From: a virus
Lineage: Duplodnaviria; Caudoviricetes
Length of the DNA: 64,000 nucleotides
Virus record (IMG/VR): IMGVR_UViG_3300028886_003672
Coordinates: 2,549 to 66,548 of that record
Strand: one strand, 5' to 3'
Below the pieces are notes generated by a model that was not told where the DNA came from, did not search any database, and saw only the letters and a list, made by a program, of their open reading frames with translations. The position numbers were made by a program, and so were the translations under genes. This document shows, piece after piece, positions 10,301 through 46,657 of the stretch. The stretch's first letter is position 1, and each line of letters begins with the position of its first letter.

Positions 10301-12599
10301 GAACAAGCTGACTGCCAGTATGGACGAAGGTGCACTGACGGAATATGTCAGCCTGCTTACCCAAATCCAGTCCCTGCTGGACAGCGGGATGACGGAAGAT
10401 GAAGTCCAGGCTATGTTCCCGGATATCGACTTCACGACCGCGCTGGATCAGCTGGCCGCGATCCAGCAGTTCCTGAAAGACAACAAATGGGACACGAACC
10501 TGACCAGCCTAAACGAGATGTTCGGGGAAGCTGTTGGGGACGAAGTCCTAAAGATCACCACGGATCTGGACATGACCGGCGCGAAAGCACGCTGGGAGGA
10601 ATGGGCCAGCAACCCCGGTGCGATCACTACGGACGCGATCATTGCCGGATACTCCGAAGCGGAAAACGCTGAAAAGCAGCAGCCCATCGTGGAAGCCTTT
10701 GTGTCGAAATACACCGAGATTCCCGAAGGCGCGAACATCGCCCAGCTGACCCCGGAAGGTATTCTGGCATACGTCACCAAGTATGCCGAATCCACCACGG
10801 GTGTAGACGTTTCCGGCCTGAACCCGACAAACGTTACCGGCATTGTCAGCGCCTACAAGGAACTGGCATCCGGCACGGATGTTTCCCAGCTGAAGCCCAG
10901 TGAGATCACGGCCTACGTTTTCAAATACCTGGAAGAAAACAAGGTCGATACCACCGGCCTGACTCCCGGTTCCGTTACCGCAACGGTTATGGCATATGAG
11001 GAGATCACCGGTGGTGCTTCCACTGCGGCCCTGAAACCGTCGGATATCGTCGGATTGATCGTCAAGTACGCTGAAGCGGAAAACGTGGATCTCTCCGCGC
11101 TGAACTCTGCCCAGGTGGAGGGCATCGTTACGAAGTTCTCTGAAGCTACCGGCTGTGATAAGTCTGAGCTGATGAAGGAGTTCGTTGCCTATATCACGGA
11201 GTACAAGGAAATCAATGGCGTGAAGAAACCGACCCTGAACATGCAGGTCGGCCTGACTGGCTATGATATGCTGGCGTATCGGCAGTGGCTGAAGAACAAC
11301 AAGGTCGAGATTGAAGGCATCGTTCGTCTGTCGGAAGCCTACGAGGATCCGACCGGTGCCCTGCATGATCCCGGGGTAAAGTTCTGGAAGGACGGACAGG
11401 AGGTCCCGGTATCCGCTGTCACAGAAGATATGCTGAAGCCGGAGGACGTCGCTGTTCTGGATAAGGACGGTACCATGCATGTCCTGATCACAGCCGAAGT
11501 GACCGGTGCCACTGAGGCTATTGCCGAAATGCGGGAACAAGTCGCGGAAGTGGATCAGTTGGGGATGACAGCCTTTGGTACCGCCATGACCGGCATCATG
11601 CCTGCGTCGCTCCTGGATTTTATCAAATCCGCAGAGCAGCGCATCAAGAATGCCAAAGGTGATCTGGATCAGTGGTATAACTTCATTTACGGCGGGAACG
11701 AGGGAATCCTCCGGACGTTGGATCAATCCATGCAGAGTGACTTCAACGCTGACAGGATGGCGCAGCTTTCTACCTATGTGGCAGAGGTTGTTGCCGCAAT
11801 CAAAAATGGTGAGGAAGTCAGTCAGGAGGATATCGACAATCTGAACAAGATCCTGCAATTTGTACAGGATCTGGATTCAGTGGGCGTCGGCGGGAATGTC
11901 ACTGCGGGCATTGCGGAAGGCATGACCGAAGCCGGATGGGATACCACGGCTGAAACCGTAGCGGAGAATCTGGAGGAAGCCATCAACAGCGCTTTCATCA
12001 TCGAAAGCCCATCTAAGCGCATGGAACCGACTGGTGAGTACGTTGCCGCCGGTATCGGTGAAGGCATGACGGGCTATGATTTTACTACAGATGTGACTTC
12101 CATGGTAACCGCACTGCAGACAGCAATCTCAGCCGCGCTTCCGGGAACGCTGAAGAATGTCGGTGTGAACGCCATGGCTGGCCTGAAAGAAGGTATTAAC
12201 TCTGGTCGCTTCAGTGTGATCACTGCACTAAGGTCTGCTGTACAGGCTGCTGTTACAGCGGCAAAGCAGGCCCTGAAGATCGCTTCTCCCTCTAAAGTCT
12301 TCCGGGACGAGATCGGCTCCATGACCATGAAGGGCTTTGGAGAAGGCATCCTGGAGGAGAGCAAGGTACAGGCGAAGATCGTGAAAAACGCAGCCCGCTA
12401 CCTTACCGGGGAAGCGCAGGAAGGCGCGATCGCCTTTGGCTCCACGGATAACCGGAAGACCTATAACAACACTTCTTCCGTCAACCTGACGGGAAACAAC
12501 TTCTATGTGCGGGACGAACAGGATATCCGCTCCCTGGCTGTCGAGATTGCCACCCTGACCCGCCGTCAACAGCGCGGCAGGGGTCTCCGGATGGCATAA
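7368..12599 (+). CDS. tape measure protein (TP901 family), 1743 aa
   Basis: LVVALSLD N-terminus, coiled coil, DFESSFAYVRKTV core, SPSKVF C-terminal motif. Confidence 0.95.
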   Translation: MAETLRELVVALSLDSSNFSRNMRSINQQIKEAESTFRLAGAGVENFEKTVAGTEAKLSMLGNKLTQQNRAVEQYSRALVAANDKLKENYDRHKDYSQRLEQAKARQEALRFEVETSKAAYEHYRDTLGETDSATIAAKQNLERYQQEHAEATAEVTKLEGQVKALQKTMQNSADAASKAATDLNNAKAAARETDAEIKRLTEELYRMKSAWTQAGTTLTNFSKKCGTLSKAMTKAGKTLTTHITTPIVALGTTAVKASMDFESSFAYVRKTVNGTEEDFSKLADASKRMSTEIATSTDEINAVMATGGQLGIATEHIEEFARVMIDLSNASTDLDADTAATQLAKFANIMGTSQSQFSNIGSTIAMLGNNFATTEAPIAEMAMRIAGAGRQIGLTEAQVLGLATALSSVGIQAQAGGSSISKALIKMEVAATTGGDALKDFARVSGMTEQEFVSAWKSDPIKVFQRFIESLAEMNEEGISSVAVLDEIGISEIRLRDTMLRAVNATELFANAQDMAAEAWEENTALAQKSSVIYGTTASKLKNLKNTALMFAQRIGDDLNPTIQQIIDSVNGLLEKFLSLDESQRQSIVKWAAFAAAIGPAVLILGKVVGAVGKVSGALGTAFTAIGKFSAKVSMAGGGLGGLLKTLVSSKLAMVALAAAVVYGAIKLVDYASGAKAAREALEGMAKTAKSWKETEADTFYSRSKGLSFFGMTKDDFVRTTASAKEWLSGLTNVWSDGQKETNEIVESWTESFKSLTATTRESLQEMKDTADAAGYTSVSDQLQADIKMLDAMDKEITTLLKKRKNRKLTEKDKLRLQELIDTREAIEVKYKLTAADTEGFTTIRKKVEAEIARAEARGQEVSGEVYQEAMVAAAEGMASVNSALDTQYDKEYAVIQLIEDATERQAALDALNAKYNEDRRAAALEYAQLMADMVNPVWQQDNVQEAKGQIGELMQLLRQYSTAKTDSEKKAFLPELNKLTASMDEGALTEYVSLLTQIQSLLDSGMTEDEVQAMFPDIDFTTALDQLAAIQQFLKDNKWDTNLTSLNEMFGEAVGDEVLKITTDLDMTGAKARWEEWASNPGAITTDAIIAGYSEAENAEKQQPIVEAFVSKYTEIPEGANIAQLTPEGILAYVTKYAESTTGVDVSGLNPTNVTGIVSAYKELASGTDVSQLKPSEITAYVFKYLEENKVDTTGLTPGSVTATVMAYEEITGGASTAALKPSDIVGLIVKYAEAENVDLSALNSAQVEGIVTKFSEATGCDKSELMKEFVAYITEYKEINGVKKPTLNMQVGLTGYDMLAYRQWLKNNKVEIEGIVRLSEAYEDPTGALHDPGVKFWKDGQEVPVSAVTEDMLKPEDVAVLDKDGTMHVLITAEVTGATEAIAEMREQVAEVDQLGMTAFGTAMTGIMPASLLDFIKSAEQRIKNAKGDLDQWYNFIYGGNEGILRTLDQSMQSDFNADRMAQLSTYVAEVVAAIKNGEEVSQEDIDNLNKILQFVQDLDSVGVGGNVTAGIAEGMTEAGWDTTAETVAENLEEAINSAFIIESPSKRMEPTGEYVAAGIGEGMTGYDFTTDVTSMVTALQTAISAALPGTLKNVGVNAMAGLKEGINSGRFSVITALRSAVQAAVTAAKQALKIASPSKVFRDEIGSMTMKGFGEGILEESKVQAKIVKNAARYLTGEAQEGAIAFGSTDNRKTYNNTSSVNLTGNNFYVRDEQDIRSLAVEIATLTRRQQRGRGLRMA

Positions 12600-22214: not shown

Positions 22215-22253
22215 ATTTATAAAACATGCCCTATGATAAATGGAGGATTGCAC

Positions 22254-24134
22254 ATGGATAAAGCAATTGTACAGCTTCCAGATTGGAAATCCGCAATAAT
22301 CAACGGAGAAAAAGTTGATATTGGTGATGTAGAATCAATCCTTATCACTGGAGCAGAAGTCATTCCAGAGTTTTCATTTAGTGGTCTCCAGAACTTGAAA
22401 CACGTTGAAATAGCTGATGATGTAAAGGAAACTAAGAGTCAGTGCTTTGAAAGATGCACCTCTCTTGAAACAATAGATTTCGGTAAAGGGCTGGAAAGTA
22501 TCGGAAACTATTCATTTTATAATTGTGAGAAAATTGAAAAACTGAGAATACCTGGGAATGTCAAAACTATTGGCTACCAGTCATTTGGTGGGATGCTCAG
22601 CCTAAAGCACTTAATTATTGAAGAAGGTGTGGAAAGTATAGGCTATTTGACTTTCAATGGATGCCCAGAACTAGAAAGGATCGATTTGCCCAGTAAAAGC
22701 CTAAAGTATATTGGAGGATCGATATTCGAAGAATCAAAATGGCTGAGAAAAAACAAAGATGAGTTTGTGACTGTCTGTGGTATTTTAATTGATCATAAAA
22801 GGCAAAAGAATGTCGAACACATCATCATGCCGGATACCATAACGGGAATGATCCCTGGAGCTTTTGCACATGATTCGTTTAAGGAGATAGAAATTGGAAA
22901 AGGAATCAAGCGTATTTCTAACCTTGCCTTCCACGGATGCAGTTCACTTGAAAGTGTTATTATCCCTGATGGTGTCGAAGAACTTGGTGATCAAGTGTTT
23001 AAAAACTGCCCAAACTTAAGGCGGGTCGTTGTTCCTGATTCTCTGAAACGAGTTGGTGCATCCACGCTGAAGCCTGAATACCTACCAAACGCTCCTAAGA
23101 AAGGGTGCGTATATGCAGGGAAAGCAGTGATTGGTTGCGTTGGCAATCCCAAGCGTGTAGACATTAAAGCCGGAACGTTTTCCATTAGCCCAGGAGCTTT
23201 TGATCAAGCTTATAAACTGGAAACGATAGTTTTACCAGACTCAATCAGAGAGATAAAATGTTCATTCTTAGCTTGCAAATATCTTTCCTCGGTGGTTATA
23301 CCCAAAGAAGTACCCACCGAATGTTTAATTGCGTTCGAAGGAGTAAAGACAATTAAGTTTTATACTTGGCCAGAATCAGAAGTCGCTCATTTTGCAAAAG
23401 AGAAAGAGATCTCTGTTGAATACCTGGATGCAGATATATCTCAAGAGGAATTGATCAAAAAAACAACAAGCAAAAGACAAACTAAAGAAGCCTATATGAA
23501 ACCATCACCAGACAAATGGTTCCGGCGAACAGGGAATGCTTTAGCTGGCATTAGTAACGAGGGATTAAAGGAGATACGGAAAAATAATATCAAATCAATC
23601 ACATTACCAACAGAAATAAATGGGCATAAGATCGAAAGGCTCGTGTTTGACTGCTTGTCCTTTTTGAAGGAAGTGCCCGAGGTCGAAGAACTGGTTATTC
23701 CCGGCGAATTAAAGATTCAAGGGCTCACCACAACCGAAGGTCGAGACTGTTGGGATTTTCCCAATACGGAGACTATAAAGCACTTGGTCTTTATAGGTAA
23801 AACAGTAATCAACTTCTACAGGTATAACAGGGTATTTGATGATAGCCTTGAATCCATTACAATTCAAGAAAGCGACCGATTTATAAGTTTAGATGGTGTA
23901 ATATATTCTAAAGATGGCGACAGTTTGGTCCTTTATCCGAGAAGTAAGAAGGATAAGAAATTTATTGTTCCAAAATGCGTAACTACAATTTGGGGATCTG
24001 CGTTCCGAAATGTTAAATATCTTGAGGAATTAATTCTACCCGAAGGATTGAAAACCATATACAAAGATAACTTTAGGGATTGCAGTATAAAGACAATAGA
24101 CAATCCTGCAGGTGTAAAGCAGAGCACGGTTTGA
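22254..24134 (+). CDS. BspA-type leucine-rich repeat (LRR_5) protein, no signal peptide
   Basis: Repeated FxxCxxLxxIxIPxxVxxIG units; RBS GGAGGA before ATG 22254. Confidence 0.85.
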   Translation: MDKAIVQLPDWKSAIINGEKVDIGDVESILITGAEVIPEFSFSGLQNLKHVEIADDVKETKSQCFERCTSLETIDFGKGLESIGNYSFYNCEKIEKLRIPGNVKTIGYQSFGGMLSLKHLIIEEGVESIGYLTFNGCPELERIDLPSKSLKYIGGSIFEESKWLRKNKDEFVTVCGILIDHKRQKNVEHIIMPDTITGMIPGAFAHDSFKEIEIGKGIKRISNLAFHGCSSLESVIIPDGVEELGDQVFKNCPNLRRVVVPDSLKRVGASTLKPEYLPNAPKKGCVYAGKAVIGCVGNPKRVDIKAGTFSISPGAFDQAYKLETIVLPDSIREIKCSFLACKYLSSVVIPKEVPTECLIAFEGVKTIKFYTWPESEVAHFAKEKEISVEYLDADISQEELIKKTTSKRQTKEAYMKPSPDKWFRRTGNALAGISNEGLKEIRKNNIKSITLPTEINGHKIERLVFDCLSFLKEVPEVEELVIPGELKIQGLTTTEGRDCWDFPNTETIKHLVFIGKTVINFYRYNRVFDDSLESITIQESDRFISLDGVIYSKDGDSLVLYPRSKKDKKFIVPKCVTTIWGSAFRNVKYLEELILPEGLKTIYKDNFRDCSIKTIDNPAGVKQSTV

Positions 24135-24202
24135 TACTTCAAATGGTTCTGCTTCGTGAGGTTGGTATATTCCTGAAACATGATTGCTTGAAAGGAAGTA
24201 AC

Positions 24203-26341
24203 ATGGACAAGAATTCATTATTGTTATCTTTTTATGAAGGAAGAACAATAAATCAAGATGCTTTTAGTGCTTATTTCTCTCCGAACGGGTCAAGTAAAAC
24301 TGAATACACACATGAAGTACTTGATAAGTATGATTCTGTAGCATATGAATTGATGGCTACAATAGAAGATGACATTGTAATTGGTGTTAGTGTTTTTAAG
24401 TCAGAAGATCATTTCGTTGGTCATGGTAGACCAGTGACCATTGAAAAAAGCCTTACTGCTTCTGAATGGAAATATGCCTACCAGGTTTTTGATGAATGTT
24501 TTCCGGATCAATCTGAAAATGAAGTAAATGAGGTCATTCAGAATGCTTTACAAAAGGGCGTCTCATATTCGGGCTATACCATAAGAAAAGAGTTAAAGAA
24601 TGATCTGTTGTTTGAAACTGACGACAATAATACTACAAAGCTCCCCAAGAAACGCATATCTCAGGCAATCCATTATTCACACAGGAATTTGGACATATTG
24701 CTTAAACCGGAAACAACAATAAATTTCTCTTCTTGTTTGGGCAAAACTCCTTATGAGCCGTTGTTTGCAGTGCTTTCTGTGGTGAATGCTGAGGCGTATC
24801 CAAATTATGCTAGTCTTTTAGCCAAGTATCGTTTTGAAGAACTGATACGTGCAATAGAAGCAGGATCTGTAGAGCGGTGCACTTTGTATGAGGATGTCCT
24901 TAAAGATCCAAATTGCAGTATCTCCACTATTGGTAATGCTGTTTCACGGGCAGGCAATTCAGATATTGTTGCTTGGTTTTTCAAGCATGTTCCGGACAGT
25001 AGCTGTGTCCTAAATAATACATTGTATGCAGCGATAAATAATAATGACTTTGAAACAGTAAATTGCATCCTTAAAAAGCATCTGTTTGATTATTCGGAAG
25101 ATTCTTGCTCGTATCATTCTCCAATGGGTGCTGCAAAGAATCATCCCGCATTTATTCCGCTATTGTTAGAATATGGGTTTGAATTATGGAATGATGAATA
25201 CCTATCTACCCTAACACTGGATAAAATAAAGGACAGCCTGCAGTTTAATGTGCATCTCGGAGAGACTGTTATTGTCAGAATACTTTCTGAAAAGAGATAC
25301 GATATTTTACAGATTGTTGAAGAATCCGTTCCCAAATACTGCGTAGGAGGAATCTTACTTTCAGCATATATCATCGGAAAAGATTTTGATAGATTTAAAA
25401 AAGGTGTGGAAAAAGGTTGGTTTTCTAATGAAAGCTCACTATTTGAGAAAGCTTACGAAGCAGGCGAATCGTGGGCAGATCTGTTGATACAGAGCGGATA
25501 TGACGTAAATCAAGAGAATGGAAAAGAACTATCTAATGCATGCAGGGAACTAAAGGTGGATTTTGCAATATACTTGCTAAAAAATGGCGCAGATCCTTAT
25601 TTACGAGGAGAGTACAGCAGCACAGATTTTGAATATGCTGCTGGTTATCATGGGTATCTTAATGATGAGCAAGAGAACGATCAGGAACGGTTGTGTAAGT
25701 ATTTACTTGATATTGGTGTTGATCCAATTATGGAATCCACAAGAACACCAAGTATTTTCACATACTTGATGAATTTGTCATCTGAGTTCAAATTATACTT
25801 GGTTGATTGGCTTGGTAAACATAATAGAATAAATGCTTACGAATGCAAAGACGATCGAAACATATCGGAGCACAGCCTACTTTATAGCGTTTTAGATCCT
25901 TTTTCGCGTGACAAGTATGATTCCGCTGTTTTGAAAAAAATGCTCGATTATGGTGCTAAGGTTGACGTATCTGCCGACTCAGAAGACACGCTTTTTATAC
26001 AGGCGTGTGCTGTATGCGATGTGGAGGAATTGAAACTATTCGTTAATCATGGAGCGAATATAAAAGAACTTGACAAAAGGAAACACACAAATGGACTTTA
26101 TGACGCAGTGTGGCACAAGCGGCCCAGAGAAGTGATAGAATATTTGATTTCACTTGGCCTTGATGTTAACAATGCAAAACCTGAGAGCAGGGTAAAAACT
26201 AGTAGTTATTATGGCACGGAAAACGTTTATCCAGCAGAGTCAGTATTAGATATTGCACTTGAAAAAAGAGATCCAGAGACAATAGAATTATTGAAAGCTC
26301 ATGGGGCTAAAACTGCTGCTGAAATGACGCAAGAAGCTTGA
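24203..26341 (+). CDS. ankyrin-repeat protein
   Basis: LLKNGADP, LLDIGVDP, LDYGAKVD, GANIKE, LGLDVN, ETIELLKAHGAK. Confidence 0.75.
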   Translation: MDKNSLLLSFYEGRTINQDAFSAYFSPNGSSKTEYTHEVLDKYDSVAYELMATIEDDIVIGVSVFKSEDHFVGHGRPVTIEKSLTASEWKYAYQVFDECFPDQSENEVNEVIQNALQKGVSYSGYTIRKELKNDLLFETDDNNTTKLPKKRISQAIHYSHRNLDILLKPETTINFSSCLGKTPYEPLFAVLSVVNAEAYPNYASLLAKYRFEELIRAIEAGSVERCTLYEDVLKDPNCSISTIGNAVSRAGNSDIVAWFFKHVPDSSCVLNNTLYAAINNNDFETVNCILKKHLFDYSEDSCSYHSPMGAAKNHPAFIPLLLEYGFELWNDEYLSTLTLDKIKDSLQFNVHLGETVIVRILSEKRYDILQIVEESVPKYCVGGILLSAYIIGKDFDRFKKGVEKGWFSNESSLFEKAYEAGESWADLLIQSGYDVNQENGKELSNACRELKVDFAIYLLKNGADPYLRGEYSSTDFEYAAGYHGYLNDEQENDQERLCKYLLDIGVDPIMESTRTPSIFTYLMNLSSEFKLYLVDWLGKHNRINAYECKDDRNISEHSLLYSVLDPFSRDKYDSAVLKKMLDYGAKVDVSADSEDTLFIQACAVCDVEELKLFVNHGANIKELDKRKHTNGLYDAVWHKRPREVIEYLISLGLDVNNAKPESRVKTSSYYGTENVYPAESVLDIALEKRDPETIELLKAHGAKTAAEMTQEA

Positions 26342-26368: not shown

Positions 26369-27427
26369 CTATGATTTTGTTACTGTCTTAACTGTTGTAG
26401 GAAGTTCATGCTTCCAATCCATTCCGATCGGGATTGGTGGGATCCATTTTACAATGGGTTTTCTTTCTGGGAACTGAGCTTGCCGGGGACCAGTCCAATA
26501 TGTGTGCCAGTGCGCTGACCGTACATGAGGACGCGGGCTGGCGTGGGTACCAGGTTCTGCGCTCTCGTCACGCTGGTATCCGGTGCTTCCGTTCCTGTAT
26601 TTCCGGATCACATTCGAAATTCTAACCCCTACATCCCAGACTCTTGGCTCTCCAGGCGCTCTGACGCCGCCGGAGAGCGTTTTTCTTTTCTGTGGATGTT
26701 CTATTTCCGGCATGTCAGGTTCATCGCTGCATAGATAAAACAGTAGCTGTAGCATTGATGTGAATGTGGCCTTGTATTCGTCACGGCTGCCTACGTACCG
26801 AACATGAACATTCGGGTTACCAAACATGCTGTCCACACGATCGACGCGGTCCATAGCATCCAGGATGCCGCCCTCCCCAAAGGGAAGAGCGACTGTTTTC
26901 GGCATCTCTCGTCCTTCAAGGAACATGGCAAATTGCAGGTCAACGCCCCTGCTGAACAAGTTGTAGTCCAGATGCGCGATGAACCCATACATTGGATGCC
27001 GCTCATAACTGAGTCCGGGGGTTTCAATGTATACCGCCCATTCCGGCAAATGGTATAGGCACTCCATCGGCAGATCTCCCGTGAGCGGCTGGCTGATCAG
27101 TGCCTGGTATATTTCCGGCGCGAAGCGGTACACCCCTTTGCTGCAGCGCCAGATGTAAGTGCTGCCCAGTGTCATGATTTCATCCATATGGCTCATGTAG
27201 AAGATTTCTCCGTAACGGTCTGTCAACAGCATGAACGGGAAAAGCGTCGGCATGATGCACCAATCCGGCACTCCTTGCATGAACTCTTTTACGCGGGCTC
27301 CGGAACCTAATAGGTTATCGGGATCTGCATATTGCTTTCGCAAATCAGTCCATATGTTTGGATACTTCCGATTCATGGCGCGAATCCATTTGTCCGGCGG
27401 GTATTGAGATAATTCTTTCCTTGCCAT
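26369..27427 (-). CDS. AcrVA2/FinQ-family protein (anti-CRISPR homologue)
   Basis: WRCSKGVYRF, LPEWAVYI, LLFYLCSDEPD, VWDVGVR, SPRPHVRSAHWHTYWTG, KWIPP occur in the same order as the AcrVA2 motifs as I recall them. Confidence 0.75.
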   Translation of the reverse strand: MARKELSQYPPDKWIRAMNRKYPNIWTDLRKQYADPDNLLGSGARVKEFMQGVPDWCIMPTLFPFMLLTDRYGEIFYMSHMDEIMTLGSTYIWRCSKGVYRFAPEIYQALISQPLTGDLPMECLYHLPEWAVYIETPGLSYERHPMYGFIAHLDYNLFSRGVDLQFAMFLEGREMPKTVALPFGEGGILDAMDRVDRVDSMFGNPNVHVRYVGSRDEYKATFTSMLQLLFYLCSDEPDMPEIEHPQKRKTLSGGVRAPGEPRVWDVGVRISNVIRKYRNGSTGYQRDESAEPGTHASPRPHVRSAHWHTYWTGPRQAQFPERKPIVKWIPPIPIGMDWKHELPTTVKTVTKS

Positions 27428-27560
27428 AGGCTGCCCTCCTTTCGGTCAGACAGCATCTATCACTCTGAACCCAAATAAAATCAAGGGATTCCTGACTTGC
27501 GTTTACCCTCCAGGAGAGGTAACATCCGACAAACAAAAAAACGCGTCAGGAGGGATGCCT

Positions 27561-27806
27561 ATGAACCGGGAAGCAAAGATACTCAGGGAAAGAAGGAAAG
27601 AACTGGATATATCCCAACAGGCCCTGGCCACCGAAGTCGGTCTGGAGGTTCGTCAATACCAGCGCTTTGAATACGGGCAGCAGCTCATATCGCACGCAAA
27701 TATGAAACTGGGCCTTCGAATCTGTGCGGCACTGGAACTTGATCCCTTTGAACTGGTCTTTGAAGATGGCGTGGATGTGGCTATGCCCAGGAAACAAAAC
27801 AAATAA
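27561..27806 (+). CDS. XRE-family HTH regulator, divergent from the AcrVA2-like gene
   Basis: LRERRKELDISQQALATEVGLEVRQYQRFE. Confidence 0.85.
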   Translation: MNREAKILRERRKELDISQQALATEVGLEVRQYQRFEYGQQLISHANMKLGLRICAALELDPFELVFEDGVDVAMPRKQNK

Positions 27807-27997
27807 TCCCTATCTCCCTGCCGGTACAGCGCTGTTGTATCGGCAGGCTTTTTTTTGTTTATGCACAGAAAACTTTATTTTCCGATTACCTCATAGGTGT
27901 CGTTGCGAGGCCCGGAAATCTATGGCTTCATAGTAAAGCCTTCTCTCACTTTTACAGAGACGTACATGTTTGGGGAGGCAGAAAGGAGGTACGGCAC

Positions 27998-30160
27998 ATG
28001 AACGATGTGCAAAAAGCTGCTGAGGCGCGGGCAGCCAAGCAGAGCAAGCCGATCGGTTCCAGCTTCGAAACTGAACGCCAGCGGGAAAAGCGTGCGCTCT
28101 TCAAACAAATTGAGGGCAGCAACGGGGTGAATATCCATAAGATCGCGGCTACAGCTTCTGCCTCTGAGGCGGACGAAAACAAGCCCCTGCGGGTTGCAGC
28201 TTACTGCCGGGTGTCAACGGACGATCTGGATCAGGCTCTTTCCATTGCCATGCAGATCAAGGTGTACAAAGAAAAGATTAAAAGCACGCCCAACTGGACG
28301 TATGTTGGTACATACGTGGATGATGGTTTCTCCGGAACGAATACGGATCATCGGCAGGGCTTCCAGAAACTGATGAAAGACTGCATGGATGGAAAGATCG
28401 ATATGATCATCACCAAGGCAGTCTCCCGCTTTGCCCGAAACCTGCTGGACTGTATCAAATGGGTGGAAGCCCTGCAAAACCACGATCCGCCTGTTCGCGT
28501 TTTCTTTGAACAGGAGAACCTGGACACAATGTCACAGACCAGCGGAATTATCCTGTTTGTGCTGGCTATGGTTGCGGAAGAAGAAAGCCATATGAAGAGT
28601 GAGGCAATGCTGCTTTCTCTTGAATGGCGTTTCAGCAGAGGACGATTTCTGACACCTCGGCTTTTCGGCTTTGATAAGGTAGAGGTGCCGGATGGCTACG
28701 GTGGGCACAAAAAGATTCTTCAGATCAATGAATCTGAAGCGAACGTGGTCAGGTGGATGTATTCCGCACTGCTCTCAGGCATGACACCGGAAGAGATCGC
28801 GGGAATGCTTACTGATCTAGCTATCCCCACCGGCGGACGGAAGAAGGATGGATCGTTCAACACGCACTGGATAGATAATACAGTTATTTCGATTCTTCGA
28901 AATGAAAAGCACTGCGGTGATGTTCTTGCACGGAAAACGTACACAAAATCGTTCAAGGATCACAAGTCACGAAAGAATACCGGGCAGAAGAACAAATACT
29001 ACCAGGCAAACCATCACGATGCGATTGTCAGCAGAACAACATGGAATGCCGCGCAACGTATCCTGAACAGCCGACGGTATGGGCATGAAGGTACATATCT
29101 TCCGATGCGAATTATCGATACTGGTTCACTGACAGGGTTCATTTCTATGAACCGCTCATGGGCTGGCTTTGATGCAGAGGATTATTACCGGGTCAGTCAA
29201 ATTGCAATGGGCCTTATGGATGGAGAATTGAAAGCAGACCTGGAGCATGAATTTCTTCCAGAGAGTGGCCACAGAATAGGCGGTCTCATGGATGATCATG
29301 GAATCGCACAGATTGCCCGTGACCTGACCGCAGCAGAACAGGAGATGAAAAACGAATTGGAAGGCAAAAAGCGTGATGCAGAAAACGAAACCGAAAAGGA
29401 AGAGATTGTGAAAACCTTTCAGGTTGTTAGCGGCAATATGTTCTCTAAGGTCTATGAGCCGGTTGTCCGGATCACAATGTCGTCCATCACATTCAATAGA
29501 GCTTGTGTTAGCAAGATGCTGTGCAACTATGCCGAACTGCTTTTTAACCCAGTAGAACGGATGTTAGTAGTACGTCCCTGCACGGTAGATAATCCAAATG
29601 CGATTCCGTGGGATTCAAACAGCCGGGGTGCCAGTTCATTAAGCAAGGTGCTTTTCGCCACCATGGGCTGGGAGGAAGATTACTCATATCGTATCCCATG
29701 CCAGCCATTGGAAGGGCCAAATGAAGAAGTGGTGCTATTCTTCGATCTGGACAACTATGTAGGCCGTGCTATCAACAAAGCTGAAGAAGTTATTATTGCC
29801 CGAAAGCAGGTAGAGATGGAAACAGACAATACCGGCAAGAGTTATTTCTACCCGCCGGAGGACGATGAGGAACCGCAGGAAATCAAAGATATGGAGGAAA
29901 AGTTCCAGAAAGCGGTGGAGGTAAACAAGAGAATCTTTGGGATACCAGCCTTTGAGCACGAATCCAATGTCCGAGGCTTTTCACAGGGAGATACCTGGGA
30001 CATGATGATCCCGGCCCGGCCACTGGACATCACGCATACGGTGGAAAGTGCTACTGTAGAGGATCTCTTTGATCAGATCCTGAACGATCCGCCAAAGATC
30101 CCGATAAAGAAAGACAGCTCCGTACTGAAAGCCAAAGTAGTATCTGATAGCAGCCGATGA
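27998..30160 (+). CDS. large serine recombinase with a long C-terminal extension
   Basis: RVAAYCRVST catalytic motif, YVDDGFSGT, ITKAVSRFARN, LRNEKHCGD. Confidence 0.9.
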   Translation: MNDVQKAAEARAAKQSKPIGSSFETERQREKRALFKQIEGSNGVNIHKIAATASASEADENKPLRVAAYCRVSTDDLDQALSIAMQIKVYKEKIKSTPNWTYVGTYVDDGFSGTNTDHRQGFQKLMKDCMDGKIDMIITKAVSRFARNLLDCIKWVEALQNHDPPVRVFFEQENLDTMSQTSGIILFVLAMVAEEESHMKSEAMLLSLEWRFSRGRFLTPRLFGFDKVEVPDGYGGHKKILQINESEANVVRWMYSALLSGMTPEEIAGMLTDLAIPTGGRKKDGSFNTHWIDNTVISILRNEKHCGDVLARKTYTKSFKDHKSRKNTGQKNKYYQANHHDAIVSRTTWNAAQRILNSRRYGHEGTYLPMRIIDTGSLTGFISMNRSWAGFDAEDYYRVSQIAMGLMDGELKADLEHEFLPESGHRIGGLMDDHGIAQIARDLTAAEQEMKNELEGKKRDAENETEKEEIVKTFQVVSGNMFSKVYEPVVRITMSSITFNRACVSKMLCNYAELLFNPVERMLVVRPCTVDNPNAIPWDSNSRGASSLSKVLFATMGWEEDYSYRIPCQPLEGPNEEVVLFFDLDNYVGRAINKAEEVIIARKQVEMETDNTGKSYFYPPEDDEEPQEIKDMEEKFQKAVEVNKRIFGIPAFEHESNVRGFSQGDTWDMMIPARPLDITHTVESATVEDLFDQILNDPPKIPIKKDSSVLKAKVVSDSSR

Positions 30161-30203
30161 TCTCAGTGGTCATCGGACACTGTTTTTTTCAGGAGGTGTG
30201 AAG

Positions 30204-30962
30204 ATGTACATATCAAAGAATCCGGCGAAGACAAGACCGCTCTCCGCTAATGTGAAACGGCTGATGCGTCTTTCCCGCGCTGCACCGAGAAACTCAGAAG
30301 TGACCCGGGAAACAAGACATTTCACTACGAAGGATCTTGCCTGCTGCGCGAAACAAGGAGAGCTGTTCATGGAAGCAGCATCCATGGGGTTTTCCATGGA
30401 GGAATTCGCACCGCTGTTTATGACAAGCCAAATGGCCGGTGTATTCGACGCCAGCTTCTCCAGTTCGGCAGTTATGGAAAATGAGAATCTATCCAATTTT
30501 TTACAGATTCCGGTTTTGCTGAAAAGTCCTGAACTGATTGTGGAATCACTGTACTGGATTGACGATATCATTTCCCGAGCCCAGGAAGGTGACAACAAAA
30601 GCCTGTTGATCACAGAAGCATATCGGGCAGAAAAGTTGAAATTGCCTCAGGCATTGGCAGAGCTTCCTGCTGAACAGAATCGGAATATTGCGGATCTGTC
30701 CTATGCCTATTGGCTTGGCTTCATTTATCGCTGCGAGTGCCTGCTGCATGAGGAATCCAGCCGGATGGTATATGGGGCTTTCACAGAGAAGATCATGCGA
30801 GCTGCTTACGACCGCCTGATGGCCAGCCCTCTTGCAGATGAAAACCTTGTGGACATTGCGGAAAATATCTGCTCCGACCTGGACAGACTCCTGGTAGAGA
30901 AGATCTGGCCAGCTGAAGAAAAACAGCAACAGCAGCGGCAGGCTGCAGAACTGAAACGGTAA
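30204..30962 (+). CDS. hypothetical protein in the recombinase operon
   Basis: ORF with AGGAGG RBS; no recognised family. Confidence 0.7.
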   Translation: MYISKNPAKTRPLSANVKRLMRLSRAAPRNSEVTRETRHFTTKDLACCAKQGELFMEAASMGFSMEEFAPLFMTSQMAGVFDASFSSSAVMENENLSNFLQIPVLLKSPELIVESLYWIDDIISRAQEGDNKSLLITEAYRAEKLKLPQALAELPAEQNRNIADLSYAYWLGFIYRCECLLHEESSRMVYGAFTEKIMRAAYDRLMASPLADENLVDIAENICSDLDRLLVEKIWPAEEKQQQQRQAAELKR

Positions 30963-31008
30963 AACGCGCATCAGTGGTCCAATGCGCTGAAAAAGGAGGA
31001 ATTAAAAA

Positions 31009-31800
31009 ATGGATCAGCAGTGGAACCAGCCTGGCTATCGTCCCGGCAACAACTACTTCGGCCCTAATGGTCAAGGGGCAGTACCAGGGAAAGTCGGGGG
31101 CTATCAGCGTCCGTATTCGGCACAGCAACCACCCCCTGTGAGCCCTGCTCAGCCACGACTTACCCGGGAAGAACAGATGGAAGCAAAGCGTCTGGCAGAG
31201 CAGGCAAAGTTTACTTTCGACGGATATCAGGTTGTACGCAGGGAGTTCATTTCCCACAATTTTGACCCTGCCATGACAATCAAGGGCAACAGCATCACGT
31301 TCAACAATTCCTGTATCAGCAAACTGGAAAACGCCACCTATGTGCAGTTCCTGATCAATCCGGAAGAGCAGCGTCTGCTGATTCGCCCCTGTGACGAAGG
31401 TGCCCGGGATGCGGTTCGGTGGTGTATTGTCCGGGAGGATAAGCGGAAGAGCCGCCAGATCACCTGTACCATCTTCATTGAAAAACTGAGGGAAATGATG
31501 GGCTGGGATGATCTGTATCGTTATCGCCTGCAGGGTATGCGAATCGACCATGACGGAGAACAACTGTACCTGTTTGACCTGAATTCCAAGGAATGCTTCC
31601 TGCCACAGAGCCGCGACCCGGAAACGGGAAAGCTCCGCAGGCCACGACCAATTCTCCCTGTTGAATGGCGCGATTCCTTTGGTATGGATGTCAGAGAACA
31701 TGCTGCGTCCACACAGGTGGATCTTACACAAGGATATATCCCCACTGAAGTGATCACCGAAGAAGACAATGCACCTTTGATTACTGCGCAAATTGAATAA
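31009..31800 (+). CDS. hypothetical protein paralogous to the C-terminal domain of the upstream recombinase
   Basis: YQVVRREFIS...SITFNNSC...FLINPEEQRLLIRPC...LFDL. Confidence 0.75.
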   Translation: MDQQWNQPGYRPGNNYFGPNGQGAVPGKVGGYQRPYSAQQPPPVSPAQPRLTREEQMEAKRLAEQAKFTFDGYQVVRREFISHNFDPAMTIKGNSITFNNSCISKLENATYVQFLINPEEQRLLIRPCDEGARDAVRWCIVREDKRKSRQITCTIFIEKLREMMGWDDLYRYRLQGMRIDHDGEQLYLFDLNSKECFLPQSRDPETGKLRRPRPILPVEWRDSFGMDVREHAASTQVDLTQGYIPTEVITEEDNAPLITAQIE

Positions 31801-31814
31801 TGGAGGCGAAAGCG

Positions 31815-32162
31815 ATGAATTCTCTCCTTCTTACACTGAACCTGCAGGAGGATACCATCCTGCTGAACCAAGGTGTTCTGGATGTATTGGGCCACCCCCG
31901 GCAGGTACAGATTCTGATAAATGAAGAAATCGGTTCTCTGCTCTTGCGGGCATGCACGATAGACGACCTTCAGGCAGTTGTTGTCCCGGAAGAACATGTT
32001 ATGCAGTTTGAAATCGGCGGGAGATCCCTGCTGAAAAAAATCCGGCGCATCACCGGATGGGTCAATGACGAACCGCGTATATGCAACGGTGAATATCTCC
32101 CGATGCATCAGGCGATCCGCTTTGACCTGATGAGTGCTGCGCCAACAGTCATTCCCAGCTAA
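31815..32162 (+). CDS. small protein carrying a third, diverged copy of the same domain
   Basis: TILLNQGV...QILINEE..LLLRAC...IRFDL. Confidence 0.65.
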   Translation: MNSLLLTLNLQEDTILLNQGVLDVLGHPRQVQILINEEIGSLLLRACTIDDLQAVVVPEEHVMQFEIGGRSLLKKIRRITGWVNDEPRICNGEYLPMHQAIRFDLMSAAPTVIPS

Positions 32163-32180
32163 GACGAGAGGAGGATACGG

Positions 32181-34355
32181 ATGAATCGGGAACGATTATT
32201 TAAGCATCTGGAAGACCATTACATTCCAAAAAGAGAAATGATCAGCCGGATCCCCCTGGGAGTACAGCCCGATGAATTCTGGCAGGATGTACAGAACCGT
32301 AGGCGGGCCAGAAGCATCAGCCTGCAGCTCCATAATCCCAGGGGAATACCTTACTGGTACGTTGTTACAAACAAGATGATCGCGGCCAGCGAACGGATAG
32401 TTGACGAAATGATGGCCAACGAAACTGAATTTGATCCCTACAGGGACACACCGTCTGCTTCTTCATTGGAGGAGAGCTTCTTCACCAGCTATGTGGAAGG
32501 TTCGCAGATCACTATGCAGGATGCGATGGCATTCTTGCAGGGAGACCGGGAGCCACAGGAACCTGAGGAACAGATGATACTGAACAACCGGAATGCGCTA
32601 AGTTTTGCCGGAGCCAACCTTTTCAGGCCGGTGGATGAAGAGTACATCAAAACGCTGGCATACATTCTGACAGAAAACATTGATGGCGGCGGGCAAGAAT
32701 ACAGGATGTCTGATTATCTGGAGATCCCCTCCATGGTTGGACTTCCGTATGAGCTTCCCACAGCACTTACTCTTCCGGACAGGGTGCAGGAAATCTGTAC
32801 GTTGCTGCACGATCCGGGTATTCATCCGCTGATCAAATCCGGTCTTGCACAGGCTTGGGTGTTAGTGACGCGCCCTTTCCCTGAAGGAAATGAGCGACTG
32901 GGCAGACTGCTTTCACAAGTAATCCTTTTCCGGGCAGGATACGTTTTCTTTTCGGAAGTCAGTCTATCCAACCTGATCGCCCGGTCCAGCTTTGCGTACT
33001 TCAACTCCATCGCCAACATCCTGCTCCCGGAAAACGGTGCGGATCTGACGTACTTCTTGGAATACTATATGGCACTGCTGGACCGGGCGGTAGCGGAACG
33101 GCATCTACGATTGACACAGTGGACGGAAGAAGAGCAAATCGCGGAACGTGAGATGGCGCAGCAACCTCTTGTCCAACAGCAGGTGCAGATGCAGATTGAT
33201 ACGTCCCAATTTGATGAGCCGCCATTTGAACCTGATGAACAGGGGGAATCGAAGCAGAGTAAAGGGGGTGATCAAACAACAACAATAGATAAAATCTTAA
33301 TACGGAACAATATCGATATGCTGCTGAACAGCACCAGTGTTCGTCAGCGTGAATGTAGGGATTTGCTTTTACGGTACCTGGACGAGGGGAAAGCCACTTT
33401 TACTACCAGGGATTTCATGAGCGATATGCAGATGAGCGAAATGACAGCCAGCAATATGGTAGGAACACTTCGCATAAAGGGCATCATTGAAACTGTAGGG
33501 AAAGATGAAAGGAACGCAATCTATGGCTTCAGTACAGGAAAGCCGCCAGTGAAAGTTAAACGGCAGCCTCCTTCGATTGACCCTCAATGCTTCCGAACAT
33601 TACTTGAAGAAATGTGCAGTCCCAATACCCAGCAAGGTAAGGTTTCTACTGTTTTGCTGGGGTTATGGGACGATGGCATTCAAACATTCCCTTACCGTCT
33701 TCTTCAGCAAAAGACAGGCATATCAGGTGATTCATTTCATAAGGTATGCTACATACTCAAGGAAAGAGGCTTTATCCGCCCGGTAGAATCTGATGATGGC
33801 GTTAAACATTATTCCTTTACAGTAAAAAATGACGAAAAGGCCCGGATGAAGGAAGCAAAGCGCATTGAATATACACATGAACTGATTGAAGCCATTCAAT
33901 CGCTGGCACATTCCAGTAGTTCGCCGAAGGATCGGAGAATTGGGGAAGTGCTTACCTATTGCTTATCTGAAGGCGTTGTCAGAAGAAGCGTATACAACCA
34001 GTTTGGCAAGCCTGAAAGATGGAGTTACGACATGGGGTTGGCTGCCCGAATGGGGCTTGTCGAGAAAGAAGACAACCAGACCTATCGTATCCTTCAGAAC
34101 ATTAAGCCTGGGCCAGGTGAACTTTTGCCCGCACAAAAGGAAATGGCAACAACGCTATACCAGTCATTCGGGGAAGAATTCTTCTCCTCGGAAATGGTAA
34201 TAGCGACGCTCGATTATTCCTCTGCGCACGTATGTGCGGCGCTTCATCAGTTCACACTGCTGAAAATCCTCCATTGCAGCAAGGAAAACAATAACACATA
34301 CCAATTCATTGTTAACCCGACAGAAAACCCGGAATGCTTCGTAGAGGTCGCATGA
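32181..34355 (+). CDS. Fic-domain protein with degenerate active site and C-terminal winged-helix-like repeats
   Basis: TRPFPEGNERLGR versus canonical HPFxDGNGRxxR; LTYFLEY. Confidence 0.75.
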   Translation: MNRERLFKHLEDHYIPKREMISRIPLGVQPDEFWQDVQNRRRARSISLQLHNPRGIPYWYVVTNKMIAASERIVDEMMANETEFDPYRDTPSASSLEESFFTSYVEGSQITMQDAMAFLQGDREPQEPEEQMILNNRNALSFAGANLFRPVDEEYIKTLAYILTENIDGGGQEYRMSDYLEIPSMVGLPYELPTALTLPDRVQEICTLLHDPGIHPLIKSGLAQAWVLVTRPFPEGNERLGRLLSQVILFRAGYVFFSEVSLSNLIARSSFAYFNSIANILLPENGADLTYFLEYYMALLDRAVAERHLRLTQWTEEEQIAEREMAQQPLVQQQVQMQIDTSQFDEPPFEPDEQGESKQSKGGDQTTTIDKILIRNNIDMLLNSTSVRQRECRDLLLRYLDEGKATFTTRDFMSDMQMSEMTASNMVGTLRIKGIIETVGKDERNAIYGFSTGKPPVKVKRQPPSIDPQCFRTLLEEMCSPNTQQGKVSTVLLGLWDDGIQTFPYRLLQQKTGISGDSFHKVCYILKERGFIRPVESDDGVKHYSFTVKNDEKARMKEAKRIEYTHELIEAIQSLAHSSSSPKDRRIGEVLTYCLSEGVVRRSVYNQFGKPERWSYDMGLAARMGLVEKEDNQTYRILQNIKPGPGELLPAQKEMATTLYQSFGEEFFSSEMVIATLDYSSAHVCAALHQFTLLKILHCSKENNNTYQFIVNPTENPECFVEVA

Positions 34356-35308: not shown

Positions 35309-35547
35309 GCAATCAGGAGTTCCGCAATGAATACCTGTTTAGCGTCACTATGGGGCATGTCGGGAGAATGCTTGATAGAGGCCTGATTACAGAGGAAGAA
35401 TACCAGAAGGTCAATTGCCAGATGAAGGAAAAATACAACCCCGTTTCAGACGGATTAATCTCGGAATCCGACTTGCAAACACGAAAAAACAGAGCAATCA
35501 TGGGATCTGGAAAGGAGGCTGGAAGCCTTGAAAATAAAGAGGATTGA
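35299..35547 (+). CDS. SHOCT-domain protein
   Basis: MLDRGLITEEEYQK; typical position before recombinases in clostridial prophages. Confidence 0.75.
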   Translation: MRMSNQEFRNEYLFSVTMGHVGRMLDRGLITEEEYQKVNCQMKEKYNPVSDGLISESDLQTRKNRAIMGSGKEAGSLENKED

Positions 35548-36727
35548 GCCTTTACAGCCCGTTGTTTCAGTTCGGAAGAAGGTCGCCGCCTACGCTCGGG
35601 TTTCAGTTAGCACCGATCAGCTGATGCATTCGCTTTCGGCCCAAATCAGCTACTACAGTGAACTGATCCAGCGCAACCCGGGATGGGAGTACGCGGGCGT
35701 GTATGCCGATGCTGGAATCACCGGTACGGATGCCAAGGTCAGGCCCAAGTTCCAGCAGCTGATCGCTGACTGCGAAGCCGGGAAGATTGATATTATCCTG
35801 ACGAAGAGCATCAGCCGGTTTGCGCGGAACACGGTCGACCTGCTGTCAACAGTACGGCACCTGAAAGGGCTGGGTGTGGAGGTTCGTTTTGAAAAGGAGA
35901 ACGTTAGTACGGCATCAGCTGATGGCGAAGTGATGCTCTCCATCCTCGCCAGCTTTGCTGAACAAGAGAGCATCAGCCTTTCACAGAACTTGAAGTGGTC
36001 AGTACGCAAACGGTATGAACAGGGCAAAGTCCATGCCCACTTGAAGCTCTACGGGTATCGTTGGGAAGGTGACGAACGAGTCATTATCCCGGAAGAAGCT
36101 GAAGTTGTTAAATTCATCTTTGCGGAGTATCTGGCAGGGAGGTCTTTTCGGGAGATTGCCGCTGACCTTGATGCCAAAGGGGTGAAGGGTGTGTACAACA
36201 AAGAGCATTTCTCGGATCAGGCAGTTCGCCGGATGATCAGCAATGAAGAGTACACTGGTTGTCAAATCTTACAGCGAAGCTATGCCCACAAGCCCCGGAA
36301 GGTGAAGATGAACAAGGGTGAGCTCCCTATGTACAGGATTGAGGATCATCATGAGGCAATCATCGAAAAGGAAATCTTTGATGCTGCCCAGCATATGAGG
36401 GAGGAGCGCGGAAAATTAAACCTGCATGAGCGACGGAAATACAGCCCCTGGTCAGGAATGATTCGTTGCGGTGAATGCGGTGGCAGGGTTGATATGCACA
36501 GTACCGGGAAGCGTCCATGGCGCTACTGGATCTGCAGCAATCGAAATGATACTTGCTTTAACAAGAATACCAACGATGAATCGATGCAAGCGGCTGTCGA
36601 GAGTGTTTTCGGCAAGGAACCAACAGCAAAAGAACTGAAACGGGAGGTCAGGCAAATCCTGATGTTCCGTGACAGGATTGAGATCCAGATGCAGAACGGG
36701 AGGAAGATCACATGGCAAAAACAGTAA
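35528..36727 (+). CDS. serine recombinase (prophage integration module, copy A)
   Basis: VAAYARVSV, YADAGITGT, TKSISRFARN, C-terminal CGECG zinc ribbon. Confidence 0.9.
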   Translation: MKIKRIEPLQPVVSVRKKVAAYARVSVSTDQLMHSLSAQISYYSELIQRNPGWEYAGVYADAGITGTDAKVRPKFQQLIADCEAGKIDIILTKSISRFARNTVDLLSTVRHLKGLGVEVRFEKENVSTASADGEVMLSILASFAEQESISLSQNLKWSVRKRYEQGKVHAHLKLYGYRWEGDERVIIPEEAEVVKFIFAEYLAGRSFREIAADLDAKGVKGVYNKEHFSDQAVRRMISNEEYTGCQILQRSYAHKPRKVKMNKGELPMYRIEDHHEAIIEKEIFDAAQHMREERGKLNLHERRKYSPWSGMIRCGECGGRVDMHSTGKRPWRYWICSNRNDTCFNKNTNDESMQAAVESVFGKEPTAKELKREVRQILMFRDRIEIQMQNGRKITWQKQ

Positions 36728-38283
36728 GGGTTATTCCGGCAACCATCAACCGAGTTACTTTGGAGCCGATCAGTTCCACAGCAAAGCGGAAGGTCGCCGG
36801 GTATGCTCGGGTGTCGACAGACCTGGAAGAGCAGCAGTCCAGCTACGAAGCGCAGGTCAGCTACTACACCAACTACATCAAAAGCCGTGATGATTGGGAG
36901 TTCGTGGATGTGTATACCGACGAGGGTATCAGCGCCACCAGCACCAAGCATCGGGAGGGCTTTCAGCGGATGGTGGAGGATGCGCTGGATGGCAAGATCG
37001 ACCTGATCGTTACCAAGTCGGTTAGCCGTTTTGCCCGGAACACAGTCGATTCCCTGAGCACCATTCGGATGTTGAAGGAGCATGGCACCGAGGTTTACTT
37101 TGAGAAGGAGAACATCTGGACATTCGACTCGAAGGGCGAATTGCTGCTAACAATCATGTCCAGTCTGGCACAGGAGGAAAGCCGAAGCATCTCCGAGAAC
37201 GTCCGATGGGGACAACGGAAAAAAGCCGCTGATGGCAAGTATACGCTTCCATTCGAACGGTTCCTTGGCTATGACAAAGGCCCAGATGGCGCTCCGGTGA
37301 TCAATGAAGAACAAGCCGTTATTGTCCGGCGTATCTACGGGCTGTATTTGCAGGGATACTCGGTACTGAAGATTGCCAAGATCCTGACAGCGGAAAAGAT
37401 CCCAACGCCAGCGGGAAAAGCAAAATGGAGTGACCAGACAGTTCACAGCATCCTGACAAACGAAGTCTACATGGGAGATAAGATTCTCCAGAAGACCTAC
37501 TCCCTGGATTTCCTACACAAGGAACGCATCAAGAACAAGGGCGAAGTGCCTATGTATCATATCGAGCAGGATCATGACGCGATTATCCCGCCCGCGACAT
37601 TTCAGCGGGTTCAAGATGAAATGGAACGCCGCCGGAGCGGGCCGCATACGGGCGATACCATTTTTTCCGGGAAGATTTTCTGCGGCGATTGCGGGAAGTT
37701 TTACGGCCCCAAGGTCTGGCACAGCAACGACAAGTACCGGAAGGTTATCTGGCAGTGCGCTCACAAGTACCACGGGCAACGCACCTGCACAACGCCCCAC
37801 ATTTACGAGGACGGAATCAAGGAAGCGTTCATTCGGGTTTGCAACCAGCTAGGCGATGGCCGGGATGAAGTGGTTTCTAATCTCAGGGAGGTTCAGGCAA
37901 TAATCGGTGGCACGGAGACGCTTGGAAAGCAGAAGGTCATCCTTCTCCGAGAACGGGATCACTATGCGGAGCTGCTGCAAAACCTGATTGACCAGAATGC
38001 TAGGGTGGCTCAGGATCAGAAAGCCTACTCGGAACAGTACGATGAGCTATACAAGCGGTACGCTTCGGCAGAAGCAGAACTCCAAGATCTGGAGAAATCC
38101 ATCCAGAGCAAAGAGATGCGGCAGAGGCAGATCGCAGAGTTTATCGATGCGGTGGAGGCCCTGCCGGAGACAGTCAGTGAGTTTCAGAGCGACCTCTGGG
38201 CGACACTGGTGGATCATGTAACGGTGTACGGGAAAAAGGACGTCAGATTCACCATGACGAACGGAACGGAAATCCAAGCATAA
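36712..38283 (+). CDS. serine recombinase (prophage integration module, copy B)
   Basis: VAGYARVST, YTDEGISAT, TKSVSRFARN, CGDCG zinc ribbon, coiled coil. Confidence 0.92.
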   Translation: MAKTVRVIPATINRVTLEPISSTAKRKVAGYARVSTDLEEQQSSYEAQVSYYTNYIKSRDDWEFVDVYTDEGISATSTKHREGFQRMVEDALDGKIDLIVTKSVSRFARNTVDSLSTIRMLKEHGTEVYFEKENIWTFDSKGELLLTIMSSLAQEESRSISENVRWGQRKKAADGKYTLPFERFLGYDKGPDGAPVINEEQAVIVRRIYGLYLQGYSVLKIAKILTAEKIPTPAGKAKWSDQTVHSILTNEVYMGDKILQKTYSLDFLHKERIKNKGEVPMYHIEQDHDAIIPPATFQRVQDEMERRRSGPHTGDTIFSGKIFCGDCGKFYGPKVWHSNDKYRKVIWQCAHKYHGQRTCTTPHIYEDGIKEAFIRVCNQLGDGRDEVVSNLREVQAIIGGTETLGKQKVILLRERDHYAELLQNLIDQNARVAQDQKAYSEQYDELYKRYASAEAELQDLEKSIQSKEMRQRQIAEFIDAVEALPETVSEFQSDLWATLVDHVTVYGKKDVRFTMTNGTEIQA

Positions 38284-45908: not shown

Positions 45909-46220
45909 ATGCGTATACTGTCCCGCGTCTGCGCCGAGTTCCATGACAAAACCGGCGCAGTGCTTTTTACAGTTCATCCTGCCGACCGGTGCGTCTTCCT
46001 GGACGCTCCGGACAGCATCCGGCAGGATCCGCTGTTCCATATGCTGCTGAACGATGGCTCCCTGGAACTTCCGACAACGAGGGAGAAACAGAAGCAGCTG
46101 GAAAACGACCCGATGAAAAAAACCGGAAAGACGGGAAGCGCGAAGGAAGAGCCGGCAGAAACGGCTGAAATGCCCGCGCCGAAGGAAGCGGACGCTTCCG
46201 GCGCGAAGGCGAAGAAATGA
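45909..46220 (+). CDS. phage head-region hypothetical protein
   Basis: Post-capsid position; AP..I..DPLF..L..DGS motif. Confidence 0.6.
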   Translation: MRILSRVCAEFHDKTGAVLFTVHPADRCVFLDAPDSIRQDPLFHMLLNDGSLELPTTREKQKQLENDPMKKTGKTGSAKEEPAETAEMPAPKEADASGAKAKK

Positions 46221-46627
46221 GCGCGTTGACTCCCGAGTCTTTCCTGGCTTTTTATCCCCGGTTCTCCTTCTTTTCCCGGGGCGTTGTCCTGCCCGAGTAC
46301 ATCCGGCAGGCCAACGCCCGATTCGGGGATTTCGGGGAGGACACGGAGGAGGCAAGGCGGCTATTCACGGCGCATCAGCTGACACTGTATGCGGTCGGAA
46401 TGCCGCCCGGGGATGCTGAACCCGCACCGGCGGCGATTGCAGCTGCCGGCCGCGGCGCAACGCAGCAGGTTTCCTCCAAAAAGGTCGGGGAGGTTTCCGT
46501 AACCTATGCGGAGACCTCCCCGGGTGATTCCGTTTCCACCGGACTGGGTGACCTGAAGGAAACCGTGTACGGGCGGCAACTGCTGAGCCTGATCCGGATC
46601 CATGGCTTTGCACGATATATATCATGA
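46217..46627 (+). CDS. DUF4054-family head-tail adaptor
   Basis: FLAFYPRF, LFTAHQLTL, SKKVGEVSVTY, TVYGRQL. Confidence 0.8.
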   Translation: MSALTPESFLAFYPRFSFFSRGVVLPEYIRQANARFGDFGEDTEEARRLFTAHQLTLYAVGMPPGDAEPAPAAIAAAGRGATQQVSSKKVGEVSVTYAETSPGDSVSTGLGDLKETVYGRQLLSLIRIHGFARYIS

Positions 46628-46657
46628 TTGACGTTCATTCTTGCATGATGTTATACT
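46628..46657 (+). promoter_or_regulatory. promoter of the inserted membrane-protein gene
   Basis: TTGACG-18 bp-TATACT with TG extension. Confidence 0.6.

Follow-up and report, generated by a model that had tools for sequence, protein, structure and literature searches.

An AcrVA2/FinQ-family gene adjoining an HTH-serine recombinase-Fic unit in an IMG/VR provirus

AcrVA2 is, to our knowledge, unique so far among bacterial proteins in having been shown to recognize a nascent peptide and then destroy the specific mRNA that encodes it. Mutation of W79, H286, R288 or H291 in this protein impairs or abolishes the downregulation of Cas12a (bioRxiv 10.1101/2022.11.29.518452). Activity is abolished in the H286A, R288A and H291A mutants (Marino et al., bioRxiv 10.1101/2022.11.29.518452) and weakened by W79A and D89A, with the loss caused by D89A being only moderate (bioRxiv 10.1101/2022.11.29.518452). 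The C-terminal H-x-R...H motif formed by H286, R288 and H291 is required for mRNA downregulation by AcrVA2, and H286 and R288 are conserved in approximately 1,800 AcrVA2 orthologues, FinQ included (bioRxiv 10.1101/2022.11.29.518452). The N-terminal, target-recognizing part, on the other hand, diverges within the family, whose members reside on many mobile elements, typically without Cas12a (bioRxiv 10.1101/2022.11.29.518452).

Here we describe a member of this family, called AcrVA2L, together with its surroundings in the window, i.e., the whole 64,000-nucleotide stretch of DNA that was analyzed, which covers most of a 66.5-kb IMG/VR provirus record. The features at and beside the gene are as follows.

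26369..27427, minus strand: AcrVA2/FinQ-family gene (AcrVA2L, 352 aa), identified by phmmer, Foldseek, phrog_6160 and conserved residues.
27444..27486, minus strand: conserved promoter-like block of AcrVA2L, then the RBS GGAGG (CTTGATT...TTCAGAGTGATAGAT...CTGACC; from alignment).
27497..27525, plus strand: promoter-like site of HTH83 (TTGCGT, 17 nt, TAACAT; read from the sequence).
27555..27806, plus strand: XRE-type HTH gene (HTH83, 83 aa; PF01381 (HTH_3/XRE), E 6e-7; repressor-type PHROGs).
27817..27847, plus strand: intrinsic-terminator-like hairpin and T run after HTH83 (14-pair stem, then CTTTTTTTT).
27998..34355, plus strand: unit U, made up of a 720-aa large serine recombinase, orf254, orf263, orf120 and a 724-aa Fic protein (from domains and conserved order).

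The original prediction, made from the letters of the DNA, held AcrVA2L to be a homologue of AcrVA2 and FinQ, and this was borne out by sequence, fold and conserved functional residues alike. All five motifs that it had listed for the protein, i.e., WRCSKGVYRF, LPEWAVYI, LLFYLCSDEPD, VWDVGVR and SPRPHVRSAHWHTYWTG, are present in the 352-aa ORF in that order. When AcrVA2L was compared by phmmer with all PDB chains, the sole match was AcrVA2 (7ci1_A, E 4e-14), and the alignment comprised two stretches, one with the W-motif and one with the C-terminal motif. The AcrVA2 motifs given with the prediction (WRNTLGIYQL, LPDWCVYV, LLWLCVAEPD, IYQIGER and RPHIRRGHWHGYWQG) were confirmed in 7ci1_A, where they align to the matching blocks of AcrVA2L. 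A structure comparison with AcrVA2, which had been put forward as a check, agreed with these findings: an AlphaFold2 (AF2) model built on 25 relatives (pLDDT 76, pTM 0.73) matched 7ci2_A/7ci1 in a Foldseek search of the PDB (E 6e-13, probability 1.0, TM 0.55/0.61-0.64). AcrVA2 chains were the only matches at E <= 0.001, the next one having an E value of 0.15, and identity over the structural alignment was only ~19%.

In PHROGs, AcrVA2L matches phrog_6160 (function unknown; E 1e-44), and its relatives (363 in a large protein collection) carry the precomputed family PF26125. Pfam and NCBIfam scans of the protein itself gave no match, PF26125 lying outside the Pfam set that was scanned. By tblastn, AcrVA2L matched a Shewanella phage gene annotated as AcrVA2 (27% identity, E 3e-18) and a Serratia plasmid gene annotated as "protein finQ" (26% identity, E 5e-16); further matches were found in Moraxella catarrhalis phages, Lactobacillus phage JCL1032 and jumbo phages, as well as in 756 plasmid records. 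AcrVA2L is a full-length, genuine member of the AcrVA2/FinQ family, and its likeness to AcrVA2 far exceeds chance. The family is already published and catalogued in Pfam and PHROGs, and AcrVA2L is an ordinary new member, which adds one entry to the catalogue and names no target.

The clade around AcrVA2L comprises more than 300 relatives with 45-96% identity from rumen and gut metagenomes. Its close members come exclusively from metagenomes and metagenome-assembled genomes (MAGs), with no isolated phage or plasmid exceeding 60% identity to AcrVA2L by tblastn. On one metagenomic contig (L067, 3623-5730), two AcrVA2-like genes that are 53% and 45% identical to AcrVA2L lie in tandem, in a manner resembling the tandem copies of jumbo phages.

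In the phmmer alignment, the residues on which AcrVA2 activity depends have direct counterparts in AcrVA2L, with W79 corresponding to W93, H286 to H301, R288 to R303 and H291 to H306. D89, by contrast, aligns with A103 and is not conserved. Among 25 relatives down to 45% identity, H301, R303 and H306 never vary, and W93 hardly does. Confidence in the AF2 model is low around the C-terminal motif, with pLDDT below 50 at residues 281-305.

With the homology to AcrVA2 and the functional motif in place, and with Cas12a being carried by some Clostridia (Lachnospiraceae), AcrVA2L might inhibit Cas12a and be a genuine anti-CRISPR like its Moraxella counterpart. On the other side, Cas12a (TIGR04330) was detected in none of the five MAGs that carry relatives, by a search run without a positive control on MAGs that are incomplete, and Cas1 was found in two of these host MAGs but not in the other three. 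Together with the published distribution of the homologues, these counts make Cas12a an unlikely target; moreover, the N-terminal recognition part diverges, and just ~19% of residues are shared with AcrVA2 in the structural alignment. We therefore rate an anti-Cas12a function as very improbable. The target of AcrVA2L is probably not Cas12a, and would more likely belong to some other host defence system or to a competing mobile element.

To place the gene within its clade, the window's proteins were mapped onto 105 related loci, and the clade was dereplicated at 97% DNA identity, yielding 34 classified groups with the following layouts.

Arrangement A (7 groups and the window, 8/34): HTH83 immediately upstream of the AcrVA2-like gene, in divergent orientation.
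Arrangement B (17 groups): AcrVA2-like gene after the Fic gene, co-directional, with HTH83 ~7 kb off at the far end of unit U.
Arrangement C (4 groups): AcrVA2-like gene directly upstream of HTH83, co-directional (tandem).
No arrangement (5 groups): both flanks informative, neither neighbour present.

According to the original prediction, AcrVA2L and a divergent XRE-HTH gene formed an Aca-like autoregulated unit. The divergent gene was confirmed as the 83-aa ORF at 27555-27806 on the plus strand, with its PF01381 domain. A conserved pairing, however, is not supported: an HTH gene adjoins the AcrVA2-like gene in 12 of the 34 dereplicated groups (eight divergent, four tandem), whereas in 17 the gene abuts the Fic end and in five it has neither neighbour. 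Loci lacking arrangements A and C show Hsp20, DUF6076, DUF6508 or unknown proteins beside the AcrVA2-like gene, and no HTH. HTH83, on the other hand, is found just upstream of the 720-aa recombinase wherever a locus contains this recombinase together with the sequence ahead of it. As it always precedes the recombinase and stands beside the AcrVA2-like gene in 12/34 groups only, the most economical reading is that HTH83 is part of the adjacent recombinase unit and not of the AcrVA2L gene. HTH83 also shows an RstR-like match, which is below the cut-off.

In all arrangements, a block with the consensus CTTGCTAT...TTCAGAGTGATAnAT...CTGACC, then GGAGG, is located ~30-75 nt upstream of the ATG of the AcrVA2-like gene. 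This block is read as the putative promoter and leader of the gene itself, from which it would be expressed; a scan for consensus sigma-70 promoters left it uncalled. Loci with arrangement C carry, ahead of the HTH gene, a block (CTTGCT...TTCAGAGTGATAAAT) that closely resembles the one upstream of the AcrVA2-like gene (L054, ~10020-10146; L026, ~10142-10311; both upstream of the HTH83 homologue), and, since both genes are preceded by a similar block, the same putative promoter type occurs there twice in tandem.

The 20-nt palindrome TTACCCTCCAGGAGAGGTAA that had been predicted is indeed present at 27503-27522. It fills the spacer of the HTH83 promoter-like site, between TTGCGT (27497-27502) and TAACAT (27520-27525), and overlaps the -10; it lies outside the AcrVA2L promoter-like block, upstream of that block's -35-like hexamer by 18 nt. 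By count, the palindrome alone does not exceed chance: for TTACC-N10-GGTAA with at most one mismatch, 0.84 occurrences are expected in the window and one was observed, and no second copy that might act as a repeated operator was found elsewhere in the window. The inner arms CTCC/GGAG are broken in two near-identical relatives (L028 and L034), although the intergenic stretch is ~97% identical. By its position, the palindrome most likely serves autoregulation of HTH83 rather than repression of the AcrVA2L promoter. HTH83 might also influence AcrVA2L in arrangement A, though no observation here points to it.

Two further candidates in this region were rejected. A 15-nt inverted similarity at both start codons (GGAGGG-NN-GCCTATG) consists mostly of RBS and ATG, and is lost in L028 and L034. 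A mosaic boundary relative to the same two loci is uninformative on module borders because it falls within the 5' coding part of AcrVA2L (~27340) and not in the intergenic region.

These observations also bear on a tighter coupling of the two genes, in which HTH83 would be a dedicated Aca-like repressor and the palindrome would serve both genes as operator, making the divergent pair an anti-defence cassette that regulates itself. The divergent layout with a 127-bp intergenic region in the window and in seven dereplicated relatives would suit such a cassette, as would the four additional groups with the HTH gene downstream in tandem, which is the classical acr-aca order, and the outer palindrome arms (TTACY/GGTAA), which are retained in six of the eight arrangement-A loci. 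The right arm, however, doubles as the -10 and can be explained as such, the inner arms vary, and it is the HTH83 promoter whose spacer and -10 the palindrome occupies. In half of the groups (17/34), moreover, the gene is at the Fic end with the HTH gene ~7 kb away. We consider a dedicated Acr-Aca pair unlikely, and retain the assignment of HTH83 to the recombinase unit.

Relatives keep the gene content and order of unit U, and three layouts with respect to AcrVA2L occur. The 720-aa recombinase possesses Resolvase and Recombinase domains. The 724-aa Fic protein (32181-34355) has a Fic domain, with its N-terminal half matching the PADLOC defence model SoFic (E 2e-25) and its C-terminal half giving a weak DnaD_N-like match. 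In most relatives, the gene directly upstream of the AcrVA2-like gene is this defence-type, SoFic-like gene. Tblastn cross-matches between the C-terminal extension of the 720-aa recombinase and orf263 (29400-30160 and 31009-31800) showed ~30% identity over ~120-150 aa, and the same short module, judged by eye, is apparently shared by orf120 (31800-32162); if so, one small domain may recur in three genes of unit U.

The AcrVA2-like gene directly abuts one end of unit U in 29 of the 34 groups. As gene orders, B and C are related by circular permutation of a single ring, and arrangement A corresponds to an inversion of U. All three layouts, as seen in the window (27555-34355), in L003, L026 and L054 and in others, have the prophage lysis genes on one side and a second module, with two serine recombinases, on the other. 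This tight yet variably arranged linkage to a recombinase/SoFic-like unit is the less ordinary aspect of AcrVA2L.

Such linkage raises the question of whether AcrVA2L is cargo of unit U or serves it, in which case the two together would form a small mobile or invertible element within prophages and AcrVA2L would be a silencer directed against a rival element or against U's own SoFic-like or recombinase genes. The abutment, the permuted and inverted layouts and the AcrVA2L-like promoter block ahead of the HTH gene in arrangement C are what such an element might leave. Flanking inverted or direct repeats were not found, however, a search around the recombinase unit and AcrVA2L yielding only short, chance-like matches, and neither the AcrVA2-like gene nor U is present in more than one copy in the host MAGs. 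Lineages with different arrangements are just 50-80% identical to one another, so the layouts may be old rearrangements, and the more distant clade members (42-44% identity) as well as five groups are without unit U. On balance, we find a subordinate role in unit U improbable. A further proposal, that AcrVA2L and the HTH83-recombinase-SoFic-like unit make up one recombinase-driven element whose three layouts reflect ongoing site-specific rearrangement, re-wiring the silencer's promoter and regulator, is quite doubtful on the same observations. If it were true, a defence-type gene (SoFic-like) and a counter-defence-type gene (AcrVA2-like) would be paired on one shuffling cassette.

The prophage setting was examined across the window. 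Siphovirus late genes occupy positions 96-20966 (major head, adaptors, major tail, 1743-aa tape measure, Dit, Tal-like, holin), and are followed in turn by two low-GC cargo genes, AcrVA2L, HTH83 with unit U, and the second module.

From 22233: BspA-type leucine-rich-repeat (LRR) protein, 633 aa, cargo gene.
From 24080: ankyrin-repeat protein, ~750 aa, cargo gene.
Downstream of unit U: second module, with HTH141, SHOCT and two serine recombinases.

The two cargo genes (22233-26341) have a GC content of 37-40%, compared with 55% for the prophage. In the second module, two large serine recombinases (399 and 523 aa) lie in tandem at 35528-38283, after the HTH and SHOCT genes, which brings the number of serine recombinases to three in 11 kb. 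The genes of the 38-46 kb region gave only weak matches to PADLOC models. A second phage-like gene set, with a contractile tail (DUF4054, Neck1, tail sheath, baseplate wedge) and a higher GC content (55-65%), spans 46217-63053 and includes a large terminase at ~61-63 kb. The provirus record seems to combine parts of two phage-like elements, or to represent a wrapped genome.

Relatives of AcrVA2L with 65-85% identity occur in MAGs labelled Clostridia, Clostridiales, Oscillospiraceae or Christensenellales, which were derived from rumen, goat, roe deer and human gut, and relatives are likewise found 2-9 kb from related holin or lysis genes. The siphovirus late genes and the occurrence of relatives in Clostridia MAGs near holin or lysis genes support the location in a Firmicute prophage given by the original prediction.

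We favour, as probable, an explanation that takes the locus as a whole. AcrVA2L is an AcrVA2/FinQ-family member, carried as an accessory gene by a temperate, siphovirus-type prophage in rumen or gut Clostridia, at the end that is close to the lysis genes and rich in recombinases; it would have its own promoter and act as a nascent-peptide mRNA silencer, with HTH83 being the regulator of the recombinase unit. By homology, the protein, once expressed from its own promoter, may recognize the freshly synthesized N-terminus of one specific target protein, whereupon the conserved C-terminal H-x-R...H motif would trigger loss of the target's mRNA; this silencing activity is extrapolated from relatives that are ~19-27% identical. 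HTH83, as the regulator heading the serine-recombinase unit, would most likely repress its own promoter through the palindrome, its place beside the AcrVA2-like gene being confined to this subclade.

Many AcrVA2 homologues occur outside Cas12a hosts, and the AcrVA2L clade could serve target discovery. It is a Gram-positive branch that has been sampled well, retains the functional residues and possesses a promoter-like block of its own.

Of the known systems, AcrVA2, the anti-CRISPR of a Moraxella bovoculi prophage (PDB 7CI1/7CI2), has the same fold as AcrVA2L and shares with it the W-motif, LP-D/E-W-x-VY, EPD and RPH-x-R-x-x-HWH-x-YW-x-G blocks. The required W, H-x-R and H residues are kept, whereas D89 is not. 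Both proteins are prophage-borne and of similar length (~322 vs 352 aa). They differ in that identity is ~19-27%, that the host of AcrVA2L lies in the Clostridia and that no acrVA1-like partner was seen; the target presumably differs as well, since Cas12a was not found in related host MAGs. To Acr-Aca operons, in which an acr gene is accompanied by an HTH autorepressor, the locus bears a likeness in this subclade through the adjacent small HTH gene and the intergenic palindrome. It departs from them in that the pairing is seen in 12/34 groups, the palindrome lies in HTH83's own promoter and HTH83 is linked to a serine recombinase. FinQ, the fertility inhibitor of IncI/F-like plasmids, is encoded on plasmids of Enterobacteria and affects the expression of F transfer genes, whereas AcrVA2L resides in a prophage and the window contains no conjugation genes. 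Nevertheless, FinQ and AcrVA2L belong to the same family, and each is carried by one mobile element while possibly acting on another.
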